Shown here piece after piece: positions 9,878 through 64,000 of a stretch of 64,000 nucleotides of DNA. The stretch is from contig MEWB01000001.1 in assembly GCA_001773215.1 (NCBI GenBank), positions 151,108 to 215,107 on the forward strand, written 5' to 3'. The stretch comes from a candidate division WWE3 bacterium RIFOXYC1_FULL_40_10. Its GTDB lineage: Bacteria; Patescibacteriota; WWE3; UBA101185; UBA10185. The notes beneath the pieces were generated by a model. The model saw nothing but the letters and a program-made list of their open reading frames with translations. It was not told the DNA's origin and ran no database searches. A program made the position numbers and the translations under genes. Within the stretch, counting starts at the first letter, position 1. Every line of letters begins with the position of its first letter.

Positions 9878-12070
9878 ATGAATCAGGTGGAAACAATAAC
9901 AATTAAAGAATATCTTGATACGAAAGGCATACCATACAAAGAAAAGGGTAAAGAGCTTATAACAGCATGTGTTTTCAATAGCTGCGACAGCGACAGTCAT
10001 GCAGGTGAGGAACACTTATATTTTGATGCAGACACTTCTCAATATAAATGTTTCAAATGCGGTGAGACTGGAAATATCTTCACGCTTTGTGAGTTTTTAG
10101 GCGATGACAAGAAAACAGTAATTAAACAAAGTACTTCTGTGGGAACGGCAAGAGGCGTCAAAATTACTCTTGAGCAAATAGAAAGCTATCATAAAGCCCT
10201 ACCAGACCGCATAAAAAAATATCTTGAGGAAAAGAGAGGTATATCCACAGACTGGCAAAATACTTTTATGCTAGGGTGGGGTTCTTTTTATGGGAAAAAC
10301 TGGATAGTTATACCTTACAAGGATGCAGTAGGTAACTTTTCCTACCTAAAGCTTAGACGAGACCCTGAAACTGGTGAGGGCGAAAAGTATATGCGATTCC
10401 CAAGCGGGGCTGAATCAGCCATATACGGCATCGAAGTGTTGAGGGAAGAACAAGACTTACTTCTGATAACGGAGGGGGAGTTTGACGCTATGGTTGCAAC
10501 CATAAACGGAATCTCTGCAATATCTTTTTCTACAGGTGCGGGTAGTTACAAAAATGAAATCCGAAAACATGCGGAGCAGCTAAAGAAAATCAAGAAAATT
10601 TATGTGTGTCTGGATGCCGATATTGCGGGTATCGCCGCATCTACTGAAGTTATGAAGGAGCTTTTAGCGTTTGCACCTGATGCGGAACTTTACAGAGTAG
10701 ATTTATCGGAAAAGGTTAGGGGTGTTGGTAAAGATATTACGGATTATTTTGCTAGCTGCGGAGGTACTCCTGATGAACTTATTTATAAACTGGCAACTCG
10801 TTTTACGAAAGAAGATGTTGGGAAGGTAAACAGAATAATAACTGTACCCAAACCACAAAAAGATGTGTCGATAGAAGGTTGGAGAAATATAATTATTTCA
10901 ACTTTCCCCACCTTGCTTTTTCCTGCGGAGCTGTCTTTGTCTGTTTTAGGGCAGCTACTTATAAACGATATTAGTAATCCTTTCGGTTTGGTTTTGGTAG
11001 GTATGCCTTCTTCTGGAAAAACCATTACTCTCAACTTCTTTTCTGATGTTGACGAGCTTGTGTTTTGCTCGGACAAGTTTAGTGCAGCAGCTTTTGTTTC
11101 CAACGCTTCAAATGTTAAGGCAGAAAAGTTAGCCGAAATAGACCTTTTGCCAAAAATTCGCTACAAACTTTTTGAAGTGCGGGACTTAGCGACTCTATTT
11201 AGTAAGCGTGACGACGACTTGAATGAAGCTCTCGGTTTACTTACAAGAGTATTTGACGGTGAAGGCATTTTTACAGATTCAGGCACTCACGGACACAGGG
11301 GTTACAAAGGTGAATATCTGTTTATGTTCTTAGGTGCAACAACGCCAGTTTCACCAAGAGTATGGAAAATGATGGGCAATTTGGGTAGCCGTCTTTTCTT
11401 TTACAACATTGATAGTCCCGCAAAGACGGAATCAGAACTCATGGAGCAGATTACAACAAGCTCTTATAAGCAGAAAGAGAAGAAATGTCGTGAGGTAACA
11501 AAAGATTTTGTTTATAGTTTATGGAACGAGCATCCGAAAGGCATTACTTGGAAAAAAGAATCCGACTCGCCAAGAGCAAAAAGCCTGGTAGCAAAATCCG
11601 CCATATTTTTGGCAAGACTTAGGGGCGTGATAAACATTTGGAAGGACAGAAACGAATATTGGAGTTCGGACGAATATAACTTCACCATGCCTGTGGTTGA
11701 GCAACCAGACCGCTTAAATCAACTTTTTTACAATCTTTCAAGAGGGCATGCTGTTATTTGTGGACGAGATTACATTGATGACACCGATTTGAAGTTTGTA
11801 ATTGAGTTGGCAATACAAAGTTCTGAATATGTAAGGTCTTCAATCATGCGTGGACTTCTGAAGAATGGAGGTAGTCTCAAAACCAGCCAGGTTGAAAAGT
11901 TATTAAATTGCTCAAAGCCTACAGCATTAAAAGAAATGGAGGTGTTAAAAATACTAGGCTTATGTGACTACCGTGAAGAACTAACACTAGGATACCCTGG
12001 CAATAGTGAGAAACTTCTTGTGCTAAAAGAAGACTTTATGTGGTTACTAGAGGAACTAAAAAGAGAATAA
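9878..12070 (+). CDS. DNA primase (zf-CHC2 + TOPRIM) fused to C-terminal P-loop NTPase domain; mobile-element replication initiator
   Basis: N-terminal zinc finger CVFNSCDSDSHAGEEHLYF...YKCFKCGETGN. TOPRIM LLLITEGEFDAMVA ... CLDADIAGIAAS. Downstream Walker A GMPSSGKT. Architecture matches P4-alpha/SaPI Pri-Rep-type proteins. Confidence 0.7.
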   Translation: MNQVETITIKEYLDTKGIPYKEKGKELITACVFNSCDSDSHAGEEHLYFDADTSQYKCFKCGETGNIFTLCEFLGDDKKTVIKQSTSVGTARGVKITLEQIESYHKALPDRIKKYLEEKRGISTDWQNTFMLGWGSFYGKNWIVIPYKDAVGNFSYLKLRRDPETGEGEKYMRFPSGAESAIYGIEVLREEQDLLLITEGEFDAMVATINGISAISFSTGAGSYKNEIRKHAEQLKKIKKIYVCLDADIAGIAASTEVMKELLAFAPDAELYRVDLSEKVRGVGKDITDYFASCGGTPDELIYKLATRFTKEDVGKVNRIITVPKPQKDVSIEGWRNIIISTFPTLLFPAELSLSVLGQLLINDISNPFGLVLVGMPSSGKTITLNFFSDVDELVFCSDKFSAAAFVSNASNVKAEKLAEIDLLPKIRYKLFEVRDLATLFSKRDDDLNEALGLLTRVFDGEGIFTDSGTHGHRGYKGEYLFMFLGATTPVSPRVWKMMGNLGSRLFFYNIDSPAKTESELMEQITTSSYKQKEKKCREVTKDFVYSLWNEHPKGITWKKESDSPRAKSLVAKSAIFLARLRGVINIWKDRNEYWSSDEYNFTMPVVEQPDRLNQLFYNLSRGHAVICGRDYIDDTDLKFVIELAIQSSEYVRSSIMRGLLKNGGSLKTSQVEKLLNCSKPTALKEMEVLKILGLCDYREELTLGYPGNSEKLLVLKEDFMWLLEELKRE

Positions 12071-24963: not shown

Positions 24964-25016
24964 CTGTTTTTCTTTCTGGAGGACAAATATCTACTTGGTA
25001 TTTGTCCTCCAATCTA

Positions 25017-60682: not shown

Positions 60683-61360
60683 TCAATGAGATGAGATTTC
60701 TATTACCAGGCACTCCAGAGCCAGTCGTACATTTACATTTGTTTTTTCGATATCCTCTAATTTCGCAATCAAAGCTTGCAAATTGCTTGCCGTTTGGACC
60801 GGTTTTGAGGCTAATTGTTCTCGTGCCTGTTTAATAAGATTTTCTAAAATATCAGAAATTTCGTCTTTTTCCAGTTTTGCAGTTTCTTCTGCCCATTCCA
60901 ACTTTGTGCCTAAGTCTGCTTCGAGCAAAAAATTATAATCAGCCTCAGTTAGGGTTTCTTCTTGCTGGCCGGATTTCACCGGAAACTTTTTGCACCTGGA
61001 TATAACAGTCTCCAGTAGATCTTTGACAGTTTTTGCTATCAATATTATAGTTGCGTACTCCGGAGGTTCTTCGAGGGATTTTAACAGCATGTTTTGTGTT
61101 TTTGTACTAAGTTCTTCTGCTTTTGGGAAGATTAATAGCTTGTAATTTTTCGAAAAAGGTTTTTTCTTTAAAAAATCTATAGCTTGTTTCACATCTTCAA
61201 CGGTATATCCTGATTTGTTTGAGGGCGTGACAAGCTTAATATCGGTTAACTTGGTGGTTGCAAGATCAATATCTTCATTTGTGATCTCTTTGATTATCTG
61301 TTCCGCTTTGGTGTTACGGTCTTTAACCGATCCACCGTAGATTAATATTGATGCTGACAT
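60683..61360 (-). CDS. holB: DNA polymerase III delta' subunit-like clamp-loader protein
   Basis: LIYGGS... and LLKSLEEPP (clamp-loader sensor-2 region signature). 225 aa. Confidence 0.55.
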   Translation of the reverse strand: MSASILIYGGSVKDRNTKAEQIIKEITNEDIDLATTKLTDIKLVTPSNKSGYTVEDVKQAIDFLKKKPFSKNYKLLIFPKAEELSTKTQNMLLKSLEEPPEYATIILIAKTVKDLLETVISRCKKFPVKSGQQEETLTEADYNFLLEADLGTKLEWAEETAKLEKDEISDILENLIKQAREQLASKPVQTASNLQALIAKLEDIEKTNVNVRLALECLVIEISSH

Positions 61361-61376
61361 GCTACTTATTATACAG

Positions 61377-62004
61377 GAGCTGCTCCAACGCTAGAGCAGC
61401 TCCAAAGGCGGAGCTACTCCTGTAGGAATGGAAATTACTCTCTTCCCCTTTCCCTAAAATCTAGATATACAGGTATATATGCCTGCGATTAACTCCTTAA
61501 AAAAATACGTTCAAGGTGGAATTTATCATGTATACAACAGGGGAAATCGGAAAAGTGAAATTTTTTTAGCGGCTCAGGACTATGATATTTTCTGTTATTT
61601 ATTGGAAAGATATTTACTCCCATGTCCTGTTTCTATGAGATGCAAGAGCTACTCTAACCAGATTAAAGTACACGCTTTTTGTTTGATGCCCAATCACTTT
61701 CATCTACTGCTAGAGCAGATCCAAGAGAGGGCTATATCCAGCTTCATGCACGGTCTTTGTCTGAGTTATTCTATGATATTTAACAAACGGTATGAGAAGG
61801 TTGGCAGACTGTTTCAAGGAGTGTACAAAGCACGTCTTATCACAAGAGAATCCGAGATAAGCACCGTGGCATCTTACATACACATCAACCCTTCCGAAGT
61901 AGGAGCTACTCCGGAGGATTACCCCTATTCTAGTTATGGTTGTTATCTAGGGAAAGACACGTGTAGATTTCTAACGACGGAGCTGCTCCAACGCTAGAGC
62001 AGCT
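61377..62004 (+). mobile_element. IS200-like / REP-associated tyrosine transposase (RAYT) element bounded by identical 27-bp hairpin sequences
   Basis: GGAGCTGCTCCAACGCTAGAGCAGCTC present at 61377-61403 and 61978-62004 in the same orientation. Each forms a 9-bp stem (GAGCTGCTC/GAGCAGCTC) with 8-nt loop. Additional nested palindromes at both ends. Confidence 0.7.
61479..61997 (+). CDS. tnpA: HUH-family Y1 transposase (IS200 TnpA / RAYT)
   Basis: YHVYNRGNRKSEIF (N-terminal beta-strand block), HUH motif CLMPNHFHLLLE, C-terminal catalytic Tyr region GVYKARLI...YPYSSYGCY. 172 aa. Confidence 0.75.
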   Translation: MPAINSLKKYVQGGIYHVYNRGNRKSEIFLAAQDYDIFCYLLERYLLPCPVSMRCKSYSNQIKVHAFCLMPNHFHLLLEQIQERAISSFMHGLCLSYSMIFNKRYEKVGRLFQGVYKARLITRESEISTVASYIHINPSEVGATPEDYPYSSYGCYLGKDTCRFLTTELLQR

Positions 62005-62069
62005 CTGGATTCACACTGCTCTTGGGTCACATTCTATCCCTTAACAACTTATTTTGTTACGATTAATCT

Positions 62070-64000
62070 ATGCCTGTAATTAGATATAACCTGCTTTTTT
62101 TAATTACTCTCCTGTGCATTTTGTGTCCTGTTGCATTTGCAACTCCTTCGCTAACTTTAAAGGGCACTGCAACGGATGGTACTTCTAATACCCCATACGC
62201 CTCCAGAGTATACTTTGGTGACTATAACGGGGACGGGTACGACGATTATGCTACTTCAAACGGCCAGACTGGTAATGGCAAGGTCTACATCTATTTTGGC
62301 GGACTTCTCTTTGATAATACAGTTGATATCACAATTACGGGTGAGGCCGCCAGCGATTTTTTTGGAAGTCAGGAGGATGGTATCTCTTTGGTTGATTTAA
62401 ACGGAGACGGGAGTGACGAGTTAATAGTGGGAGCTCCTTATAACGATGCGGGAGGAAGTAATGTTGGGAAAATTTACATCTATACTGGTGGTGTTTTAAG
62501 CAGTGGTACCTATGCGGCCAGCGTGGCGAATACTACGCTTGTAGGTAATTTAACCGACAGGAGACAACTTGGTAGGTCGGTATCTTATGGCGATGCGGAT
62601 AATGATGGTGATATGGATTTACTTATTGGATCCATAGCAGAGTCTCAGGCGGTCTCCAAACTTCATATATTTACGAATTCATCAGGAGTGGTGGATTTTT
62701 CAGCTAGTTGGGCGATACTTTCGCTGGCGGGCTCCACTGCATATAGTGTATTTAGCAGAGCTATGGCGTACGACTTCAATGATGACAGTTTCAACGATAT
62801 ATTAGTGTCTGATGGTTGGGGGTATTCCTATACAGGGAAAGACCTCAACATTAGTTTTGGGGATGGCACAACAGCTTTTGGAACTACAACATCGTTTCCC
62901 GAGAGTTCCTCAGCCAGTGCCTATGGCCGTGCCAATTCGTACGATGTGTCGGACATCAACTTGGACGGGAAAGAGGATATTTGCGCTAGCATTTACACAG
63001 GCAGTTCTAATAGGGGATCAGTATTTTGCTGGTTTGGGAGAGAGACTTTTTTATCAAGCTACGCCCAAAGTACTGCAGATATCACATTAACCGGTCCAAA
63101 TGCCGGTGACTATCTTGGAAGAGGCCTTACTATTTCAGATGTTAACAATGATGGAAAGCCGGATCTATTAGCGGGAGCAACTCAGTGGGGGGCAACAAAA
63201 AGGGGGGCTTTATATATATATAAAGGAACCGGGGAAACCTTTTCTAGTTCTCCCTGGCTTACTTATGCAAAGACTAGCGGAACCACCAGTTTCGGCGCTT
63301 CTGTGTCAACGGGAGATCTAGATAGCGATGGTTGGGTGGATATAAATGTAACGACTGGAGGCCAATGGGTAGGCGGAAGCGGGGCTTCGTATATAAATAT
63401 TTTCGAGATTGACCATGGAAATCCGACCATAAGCGTGGCTGGCGCGTCTAGCGGAAGTGAAATGGAAGGGGAAGCTATTTCCGGAGATCCCGGCTACACT
63501 GTTAAGGGAGTTGAGTGGAGTACCTCAGCCAACTTATCCGGTACATGGACCGCGTGCACGCCCAAAGATGGAACTTTCGACGAATCTACCGAGGAGTTTT
63601 CGTGCAATGTTTCCAGTTTTGAAGATGGGGAAAGCGAAATATATTTGCGATCCTATGACCAAAATGATGTGTACATGCCGGAACGGTTGATTATGCATAA
63701 AGATTTTACTTTGGACAAAGAAAGTCCCGGTGAAAGCGACCAACTAGTGGGTCTATCCAAGGATAATCTCGTGCAACTTGGTTCTAAAACGCTAAAATCT
63801 GATGACCGAGAATTAACTTTGTACTTTGATGTTAAGGATTCAACAACCGAGGTTAAGTACTTAATGCTTTCCCAAAAGGATGATTTTAAGGGTGCGAAAT
63901 GGAAGGCATATGACGGGGACATCAAACTTAGTTTTGATCACGATGGAAAGAAAAATCTATTTATTAGATTTAAAGATGATGCGGGTAATGTTTCTGATAC
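62070..64000 (+). CDS. Partial (3' end beyond window) secreted FG-GAP repeat protein, paralog of 53181..55601
   Basis: ATG at 62070 with signal peptide MPVIRYNLLFLITLLCILCPVAFA. Repeats DYNGDGYDDY, DLNGDGSDELIVG, DADNDGDMDLLIG, DINLDGKEDI, DVNNDGKPDLLAG, DLDSDGWVDI. Block SGTWTACTPKDGTFDESTEEFSCNVSS...RSYDQNDVYMP homologous to the other gene. Open to window end and not in ORF track for lack of stop. Confidence 0.6.
   Translation, partial: MPVIRYNLLFLITLLCILCPVAFATPSLTLKGTATDGTSNTPYASRVYFGDYNGDGYDDYATSNGQTGNGKVYIYFGGLLFDNTVDITITGEAASDFFGSQEDGISLVDLNGDGSDELIVGAPYNDAGGSNVGKIYIYTGGVLSSGTYAASVANTTLVGNLTDRRQLGRSVSYGDADNDGDMDLLIGSIAESQAVSKLHIFTNSSGVVDFSASWAILSLAGSTAYSVFSRAMAYDFNDDSFNDILVSDGWGYSYTGKDLNISFGDGTTAFGTTTSFPESSSASAYGRANSYDVSDINLDGKEDICASIYTGSSNRGSVFCWFGRETFLSSYAQSTADITLTGPNAGDYLGRGLTISDVNNDGKPDLLAGATQWGATKRGALYIYKGTGETFSSSPWLTYAKTSGTTSFGASVSTGDLDSDGWVDINVTTGGQWVGGSGASYINIFEIDHGNPTISVAGASSGSEMEGEAISGDPGYTVKGVEWSTSANLSGTWTACTPKDGTFDESTEEFSCNVSSFEDGESEIYLRSYDQNDVYMPERLIMHKDFTLDKESPGESDQLVGLSKDNLVQLGSKTLKSDDRELTLYFDVKDSTTEVKYLMLSQKDDFKGAKWKAYDGDIKLSFDHDGKKNLFIRFKDDAGNVSD

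Follow-up and report, generated by a model that had tools for sequence, protein, structure and literature searches.

The 64-kb window analysed here is a stretch of the genome of candidate division WWE3 bacterium RIFOXYC1_FULL_40_10, and the subject of this report is a unit in it that consists of a Y1 transposase-like gene and two flanking copies of a 27-nt hairpin-forming repeat. WWE3 is a candidate phylum in the Candidate Phyla Radiation (CPR), or Patescibacteria radiation. The Y1 gene occupies a 710-nt gap between holB, which lies on the minus strand with its ATG 15 nt from the left hairpin, and the gene of an FG-GAP repeat protein. Farther out, gyrB is found past holB and a type IV pilus/type II secretion system (T2SS) operon past the FG-GAP gene. 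The protein is recorded under OGC60415.1 and three further accessions, where it is named either 'hypothetical protein' or 'Transposase IS200-like domain-containing protein'. The GC content of the open reading frame (ORF) is 0.407 and that of the window 0.404. The original prediction, made from the sequence, had described an element of IS200 type or of repetitive extragenic palindromic (REP)-associated tyrosine transposase (RAYT) type at 61377-62004, a span that is one base off at each end (61376-62005). The coordinates of all features are listed in Table 1.

The repeat, GGAGCTGCTCCAACGCTAGAGCAGCTC, is present in two exact copies, and both have the loop CAACGCTA on the plus strand. No further match with up to three mismatches was found elsewhere in the 64-kb window, and 0 were expected from shuffled sequences. 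Identical 27-mers in the same orientation had been predicted on both sides of the gene, which is correct for the identity and for the strand; the right copy, however, does not stand clear of the ORF but overlaps it and provides its stop codon. The 9-bp stem and 8-nt loop described there agree with our folds of single-stranded DNA, which gave stems of 9-10 bp. In the left copy ten perfect base pairs close the 8-nt loop (-13.6 kcal/mol, z = -2.3), and the right copy folds into nine Watson-Crick pairs plus a G.T and a C-G pair (-11.4 kcal/mol, z = -2.1). When the two copies were compared both ways, 27/28 positions agreed in direct and 23/28 in inverted orientation; the 27-mers are palindromic, so an inverted reading is also possible. 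The segment between the hairpins of the same polarity, comprising hairpin and gene, is 603 nt long, and the whole unit 634 nt.

The hairpin arms are themselves 11-nt near-palindromes (GGAGCWGCTCC), and three such units with a spacing of 17 nt stand at the left end. With up to one mismatch the 11-mer has 8 matches against 0.5 expected, and all except one of them are inside the element. Nested palindromes (ACAGGAG...CTCCTGT) had been predicted for both ends; the outer palindrome TACAGGAG...CTCCTGTA exists at the left end only. The left compound palindrome begins 11 nt upstream of the ATG of holB and its minus strand folds with -14.3 kcal/mol (z = -3.1). The 16-mer GCTAGAGCAGATCCAA, inside the gene, agrees with the loop and 3' arm of the left hairpin (61390-61405) in 15/16 bases, a level which 0/300 codon shuffles reached. 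One half of the hairpin may derive from the gene by copying, or this segment and the left hairpin may pair with each other. The longest perfect hairpin of the window is a different one, unrelated to the 27-mer family: it lies at 24977-25011 and has a 13-bp stem and a 9-nt loop (TGGAGGACAAATA...TATTTGTCCTCCA).

Table 1. Coordinates of the Y1 gene, its motifs and the associated repeats in the window.
Feature	Position	Strand	Details
tnpA_Y1 class-2 (RAYT-like) gene	61479..61997	+	172 aa; OGC60415.1
HUH motif codons	61692..61709	+	N72-H73-F74-H75-L76-L77; H73 and H75 invariant (18 sequences)
Y motif codons	61875..61892	+	Y133-I-H-I-N137-P138
Left 27-mer hairpin	61376..61402	+	with base 61403: 10-bp stem, loop CAACGCTA
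Right 27-mer hairpin	61979..62005	+	orientation as left copy; covers the final 19 nt of the ORF including the TAG stop
Left compound palindrome	61372..61424	.	outer arms TACAGGAG/CTCCTGTA around three GGAGCWRCTCC units, 17-nt spacing
Third, variant 11-mer unit of left end	61410..61420	+	GGAGCTACTCC
Variant 11-mer within ORF	61902..61912	+	GGAGCTACTCC, same as unit at 61410-61420
Internal 16-mer	61709..61724	+	GCTAGAGCAGATCCAA; codes LLEQIQ directly after the HUH motif

The protein matches the Y1_Tnp family (Pfam: PF01797) with 43.8 bits (cut-off 23, E = 3.4e-11). The motif NHFHLL, which had been recognised as the histidine-hydrophobic-histidine (HUH) motif, lies at residues 72-77, and Y1 transposases align with the protein at H73, H75 and the Tyr motif. 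A C-terminal Tyr region is present as predicted; the putative catalytic residue is Y133 in YIHINP and not the Tyr of QGVYKA. A search for homologues returned 2,155 matches, the nearest of which is merely 52% identical; the named ones belong to Microgenomates, Woesebacteria, Curtissbacteria and 'Patescibacteria group'. Besides the two histidines, Q113, Y133, I134, H135, N137, S151 and S152 are invariant in the alignment of 18 sequences, P138 is nearly so, and the window protein retains all 24 family-invariant residues. Y133 pairs with the catalytic Y132 of ISDra2 TnpA in the profile-to-PDB alignment, in which the ISDra2 matches are weak (E = 0.02). The third metal ligand sits four residues past the Tyr, as Q131 in IS608 TnpA and N119 in E. 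coli TnpA_REP (PMC6006769). Y133 is therefore presumed to be the nucleophile and N137 the third metal ligand.

The motifs of the protein are NHFH, FQ (LFQG), YIHINP and SS (PYSSY). The second variant of subclass 2.1 in Table 1 of Quentin et al. has NH[YF]H, FQ, Y[IV]HLNP and SS (PMC6006769), and the window protein agrees with this TnpA_Y1 subclass by comparison of motifs, not by a tree with reference members. In that classification the Y---NP signature defines the RAYT-like class 2, and IS200 transposases (subclass 1.1) carry DH[VI]H together with Y[IV]ENQ (PMC6006769). The AlphaFold (AF2) model has a predicted local distance difference test (pLDDT) score of 87.8, and its closest fold in the PDB is 4ER8, the E. 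coli RAYT-REP complex, which matches over the full length with E = 1.5e-6 and a query template modelling score (TMq) of 0.63. The folds of IS608, ISDra2 and IS200 TnpA rank after it with TM scores of 0.40-0.46, those of IS608 and ISDra2 alone spanning 0.41-0.46; the matches to 4ER8, 2XO6, 2VHG and 2F4F all have a probability of 1.00. The model thus has the ferredoxin-like HUH fold of the known TnpA and RAYT structures. The sequence-profile search of the PDB returned only the weak ISDra2 matches, and the link to 4ER8 emerges by fold alone. Because it has the class-2 Y---NP instead of Y---Q and because its best fold match is 4ER8, the enzyme is, judged from its sequence and its predicted structure, RAYT-like and not IS200-like, so that of the two types named in the original prediction only the second is kept. 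It is not a canonical RAYT, with an NCBIfam score under the cut-off and hairpins lacking the GT[AG]G tag.

These results bear on the possibility that the unit is a classical IS200/IS605 insertion sequence, that is, a mobile element in several copies with a class 1.1 TnpA and subterminal hairpins at both ends. The Y1_Tnp match would suit such an element, as would the hairpins, which are on one strand and in direct orientation like the ends of IS608 and ISDra2. The protein suits it less: its Y motif is YIHINP and not Y[IV]ENQ, its HUH motif is NHFH and not DH[VI]H, its fold is nearer to the RAYT 4ER8 than to the IS608 and ISDra2 TnpA, and with 172 aa and an SS tail motif it exceeds the IS200 core.

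The right 27-mer provides the last five codons of the ORF and its TAG stop (61995-61997), the protein ending in ..TTELLQR. Most homologues have 200-230 aa and extend 20-55 aa past residue 172 in the alignment, so the window protein ends that much earlier because the right hairpin gives the stop codon. The frame reads ..FLTT[ELLQR*SSSGFTLLLG]HILSLNNLFCYD* and is thus open again past the TAG. An in-frame insertion of the right hairpin that severed an ancestral tail was considered and dropped for lack of support, as the family hidden Markov model (HMM) scores 243.1 for the intact frame versus 241.8 and 242.8 after deletion of 27 and 48 nt. A C-terminal distal helix-turn-helix (HTH)-like domain (Bac_DnaA_C, HTH_23 or HTH_28) is absent from the protein, which stops just after the SS region, and none of ten CPR homologues has an HTH Pfam match at E <= 1.

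The unit could thus be a decaying relic, in which the right hairpin removed the C-terminal tail and left a dead enzyme and a fossil. The length of 172 aa compared with the 200-230 aa of most homologues and the stop codon within the hairpin loop would fit this, and so might the accessions: none of the four listed for the exact Y1 protein has an HLD prefix, which could mean that it was not called intact in the DATDUJ assembly. Nevertheless we consider a relic rather unlikely, given the retention of every family-invariant residue, the confident structure model and the two 27-mers, which are still identical. Moreover, the short tail looks like a trait of the lineage, because P0003 and P0004, the nearest relatives, are also short (191 aa) and have hairpins at the stop codon. 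As to the accessions themselves, HolB and GyrB have HLD accessions (DATDUJ assembly: GCA_035290405.1, DATDUJ010000004.1), and each of the four listed for the exact Y1 protein is of the OGC series; its gene may be annotated otherwise in that assembly, or as a pseudogene.

For comparison of the flanks, the loci of nine further homologue lineages were fetched. Seven homologue lineages are bracketed by palindromes of their own, and the sequence is different in every one of them. P0004 is flanked by TAGGCTCAGCCCGCTAGCGGGCTGAGCCCTC, identical in 31/31 positions on both sides, P0003 by hairpins of the GGGGCCAGACCCCG type, P0060 by TGACAGGGGTTACCCCTGTCA and P0056 by doublets of AAGGGGTTACCCCTT. A divergent second Y1 gene, 8.6 kb off on the P0060 contig, has its own palindrome ATCAAGGTTCCGAACCTTGAT, and GGGCTCAGCCC arms are found in the L108 type and the L060/L078/L082 type, both from metagenome contigs. 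In every bracketed lineage the 3' palindrome overlaps the stop codon or lies within ~10 nt of it. P0017 and P0106 have weak flank repeats only. As a control we used 148 ORFs of >=150 aa from the same loci, and flank words of >=15 nt shared by both sides occur only at Y1 genes or their immediate neighbours. The original prediction of a Y1/HUH gene bracketed by cognate hairpins is thus supported by the alignment of the HUH histidines and the Tyr motif with Y1 transposases, by a fold that matches RAYT as well as IS608 and ISDra2 TnpA, and by homologues with hairpins of their own in corresponding places.

The related proteins P0004, L108 (70% identity) and L060 (50%) have related stems with different loops. 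This likeness of the stems is the co-variation that an enzyme and the DNA site it recognises would be expected to show. Direct orientation fits better in the window element, P0004, L108 and L078. It was discarded as a trait of the whole family, since P0003 and the P0060 paralogue fit slightly better inverted and P0056 has doublets.

The recurrence of this layout also bears on the idea that the hairpins are unconnected with the enzyme and are terminators, RNA elements or chance repeats. In its favour, REP-like hairpins at the 3' ends of genes can stabilise mRNA (PMC6006769). However, terminator and promoter scans of 61000-62400 gave no site at the hairpins and no T-tract, an Rfam scan of the same region gave no family match at them, and the gene-plus-hairpin layout recurs with different sequences in at least seven homologues and not at the control genes. 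We regard hairpins unconnected with the enzyme as extremely improbable.

Some of the homologue loci have further features. The Woesebacteria contig L174 contains two divergent Y1 genes (1405-2088 and 10001-10684) 8.6 kb apart, each with its own distinct bracketing palindrome and an extra copy of it inside its own coding region. The P0003 homologue (L039 7082-8794, L040, L041) adjoins an apparent diversity-generating retroelement with an RVT_1 reverse transcriptase (363 aa) and a bAvd-like protein (112 aa), which lies near large Laminin_G_3 surface-protein genes. In several CPR loci Y1 genes adjoin genes of variable surface proteins (FG-GAP, Laminin_G_3, Lcl_C).

To count copies in the source genome, a span of 81,495 nt was read, which consists of the window and flanks of 9.5 kb and 8 kb and amounts to ~9% of the genome. 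The only copies of the 27-mer in this span are the two that flank the gene. There are no extra copies with up to three mismatches, none with these arms and any loop, and no Y1 paralogue or second copy of the gene. Two copies in 81,495 nt imply a total of at most ~33 (95%) if copies are randomly spread over ~0.9 Mb. This excludes a classical REP population (>100 copies) and is compatible with a small family. A free-loop hairpin search of the GTDB representative genomes gave 34 hits, which were single sites (two in L022), mostly of high GC content and all outside the CPR. We dismissed them as chance hits; they are ELL/EQL-type coding sequence, and some of the loci gave a palindrome match on either strand. 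An exact 26-mer had no match in the JGI metagenomes. Neither the GTDB representative scan nor the JGI scan contained the source genome.

The relatives differ in the number of their hairpins. In the L078/L138 genome a stretch of ~8 kb contains at least 8 cognate hairpins GGGCTCAGCCC-N5-GGGCTGAGCCC; one of them lies in frame within the gene of a UvrD-like helicase, where it separates motif I from motif Ib. In the low-GC contigs 16/87 such hairpins are inside long open frames. In L078 (280-2300), L138, L060 and L082 (GC 0.41) the hairpins are clustered with other GC-rich mini-palindromes round the Y1 gene. P0003, P0056, P0060 and L108 have one extra palindrome copy each, a few kb away. Because relatives hold extra cognate copies, the family can seed solo hairpins in a REP-like manner; in the window genome such seeding is either absent or rare.

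Dispersed REP copies had been envisaged in the original prediction, and there are none in the 81.5 kb of the source genome. A canonical domesticated RAYT with a high-copy REP or REPIN population across the genome, of which the 27-mers would be the REPs nearest to the gene, would explain the RAYT-like motifs and fold and the many dispersed cognate hairpins in the CPR contigs of relatives. We judge it very improbable for the window, where further copies are missing and limited by the above estimate, the flanking copies are direct and not inverted, the GT[AG]G tag is lacking and the NCBIfam score is under the cut-off, and where the position of the gene is not conserved in a sister species.

This sister species, also of WWE3, has the same gene block, with identities of 75% for GyrB, 72.5% for T2SSE and 43% for HolB. 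There, holB is 87 nt from the MshEN/T2SSE gene (L183 9914-10000), and thus beside the pilus operon, and the Y1 and FG-GAP genes are both missing. Since the sister species keeps the gene order without the Y1 gene, the unit is accessory DNA in conserved synteny and not an old gene of fixed position; the difference may equally well stem from gain of the unit in the source genome or from its loss in the other species. The FG-GAP gene is accessory at the site as well, because it too is missing between holB and MshEN/T2SSE in the sister species. An empty site could not be defined at the nucleotide level, the 87-nt spacer of the sister species being unalignable with the window flanks, so that only gene order is usable. 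In the source genome the block between holB and MshEN/T2SSE that comprises the Y1 unit and the 726-aa FG-GAP gene is ~2.9 kb long (window 61361-64000, L001 10592-12855).

Independent ENA/Logan assemblies (loci L001-L003) are 100% identical to the window over the element and the 23 contigs with the exact protein all have one gene neighbourhood, which shows that the element did not arise from misassembly. For the exact Y1 protein as for HolB, 20 contigs are recorded. The gene lies in the interior of contigs that measure 0.67-0.9 Mb, the largest of which has 903,723 bp, and no tnpB-type Pfam family was found among the neighbours in the locus contigs and flanks. The single context, the size of the contigs and the lack of a tnpB neighbour make the unit unlike a multi-copy IS200/IS605 element. 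Its absence from the syntenic site of the sister species would agree with a classical insertion sequence, but with the missing second copy or paralogue in 81.5 kb and the features of the protein we hold this explanation to be very unlikely. An apparent second insertion site, P0002/L038 (1-970), was rejected as an assembly chimera, because in this 970-nt contig of 1.7x coverage identity to the window starts only at the MPNHFH codons, where an unrelated Y1 gene is joined.

On the minus strand a perfect TATAAT at 61366-61371, which the consensus promoter scan missed, ends 5 nt ahead of the holB ATG. Because of this short distance holB may be leaderless, and its upstream promoter elements may lie inside the left hairpin.

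We consider it probable that the window contains a REPtron/TIRtron-like unit, in which a single-copy class-2 TnpA_Y1 gene stands between two identical hairpins, presumably its cognates, and which is accessory and low in copy number. Judged from the protein and from the 81.5 kb read, the unit is probably neither a high-copy REP system nor a classical IS200 element. Several points weigh against this interpretation. The only NCBIfam match of the protein is REP_Tyr_transpos (NF047646) with 48.5 bits, under the RAYT equivalog cut-off of 80, and the shortened protein might be crippled. The GT[AG]G tetranucleotide is absent from the hairpin foot of either copy on either strand: the 5' flanks of the 27-mers are TATACA and AACGAC on the plus strand and CCTTTG and GAATCCA on the minus strand, and the sole GTAG near the hairpins, on the minus strand, is separated by 11 nt from the foot of the left hairpin. 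Beyond the 27-mer the sequences of the left and right ends are unrelated. Furthermore, the loci of P0036 and P0027 have no flanking palindromes, and the association of gene and hairpin is therefore not universal. Subclass 2.1 is reported by Quentin et al. to lack REP-like sequences (PMC6006769). Finally, the search for copies spans ~9% of the genome.

By analogy with the chemistry of IS608 and ISDra2 TnpA and of E. coli TnpA_REP (PMC6006769), from which all of the following steps are taken, each 27-mer would fold into a stem-loop of 9-10 bp when the DNA becomes single-stranded, as it does at a replication fork, and the enzyme would bind this hairpin. With Mg2+ held by H73, H75 and N137, Y133 would cut beside the hairpin foot, form a 5'-phosphotyrosine link, and the enzyme would then reseal the DNA ends. 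Because the two hairpins point the same way on one strand, the 603-nt segment of hairpin and gene could be excised or copied as a unit, as in the peel and paste of IS200; alternatively, solo hairpins could be seeded elsewhere in a REP-like way. The cumulative GC skew climbs across the window, which weakly suggests that the plus strand is the lagging-strand template; the stem can form on both strands.

These results explain the annotation of the protein as hypothetical or IS200-like and indicate that the 27-mers are functional partners of the gene and not noise. The homologue loci suggest that the tiny CPR genomes host RAYT-like enzymes with cognate hairpin repeats, which in some lineages are dense and in frame in coding sequence. 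This has a bearing on the rise and tolerance of repeats in reduced genomes, on the assembly and annotation of metagenome-assembled genomes (MAGs) of the CPR, and on the reported lack of REP-like partners for TnpA_Y1 subclass 2.1; the understanding of how HUH enzymes act is unchanged. The pattern in the CPR family may be an undescribed variant, with untagged GC-rich hairpins at the stop codon that are dense and intragenic in some lineages, a view that rests on about a dozen loci, mostly outside the window. A further-reaching proposal is that the window unit is one case of an undescribed CPR-wide class of REPtrons, whose subclass-2.1-like enzymes co-evolve with their own untagged GC-rich stop-codon hairpins, often of the same polarity and in some lineages at ~1 copy/kb and in frame in housekeeping genes. 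In this proposal the 603-nt segment, with one polarity at both ends, could still be mobile as an autonomous IS, intermediate between IS200/IS605 and a domesticated RAYT. We regard it as conceivable but doubtful.

Among the known systems, the IS200/IS605 elements (IS608, ISDra2 and IS200; subclass 1.1) have in common with the window unit the Y1/HUH fold of the enzyme, hairpins on the same strand near both ends and a compact size. They differ in the Y---Q motif where the window enzyme has Y---NP, in the absence of its extra SS tail, and in having several copies per genome, often with tnpB, where the window unit has a single copy in 81.5 kb and no tnpB among its neighbours. Their conserved cleavage tetranucleotides have no identifiable counterpart in the window unit.

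The intragenic REPs and the Rickettsia palindromic elements resemble the in-frame hairpins that the relatives carry in genes such as that of the UvrD-like helicase, and REPs inside tnpA genes of subclass 2.4 have been reported by Quentin et al. (PMC6006769). The window differs in that it has no such hairpins, save for the right one, which forms the end of the Y1 ORF.

The REPtron, which comprises E. coli TnpA_REP/RAYT yafM with REPs and bacterial interspersed mosaic elements (BIMEs) (subclass 2.2, 4ER8), is described by Nunvar 2010 and by Ton-Hoang/Messing 2012, as cited in PMC6006769. Both enzymes have the HUH and Y---NP motifs, and 4ER8 is the best full-length structural match of the window protein. 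In both systems the gene is single-copy and, as noted for RAYTs by Nunvar et al., cognate hairpins lie at or near the stop codon, and the hairpin sequence shifts with the protein across lineages as it does in the window family. In contrast to the REPtron, the window hairpins have no 5' GT[AG]G tag and flank the gene in direct instead of inverted orientation, and dispersed copies are missing in 81.5 kb of the genome. Further differences are the REP_Tyr_transpos score, which is 48.5 against a cut-off of 80, the W motif, which is FQ, the HUH motif, which is NHFH and not DHLH, and the host, which is a CPR bacterium.

The TIRtron, or TIRYT (subclass 2.1; Bertels group 1; PMC3733652, PMC6006769), named after terminal inverted repeats (TIRs), has the motif set NH[YF]H, FQ, Y[IV]HLNP and SS in common with the window protein and is likewise low in copy number. 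The repeats on either side of a TIRtron gene make up modest families only; some are self-complementary and some reach into the 3' end of the gene (Di Nocera et al. 2013, PMC3733652), which is also seen in the window unit. The window protein differs in lacking the C-terminal HTH-like distal domain, and its repeats are short hairpins that fit best as direct copies, whereas those of the TIRtron are long TIRs with GGGGWSAS. REP-like sequences are not reported for subclass 2.1 by Quentin et al. (PMC6006769). Our literature search found no paper that connects CPR bacteria with REP/RAYT systems. In this lineage, for which no published description was found, the window element is a low-copy example of the known REPtron/TIRtron arrangement.

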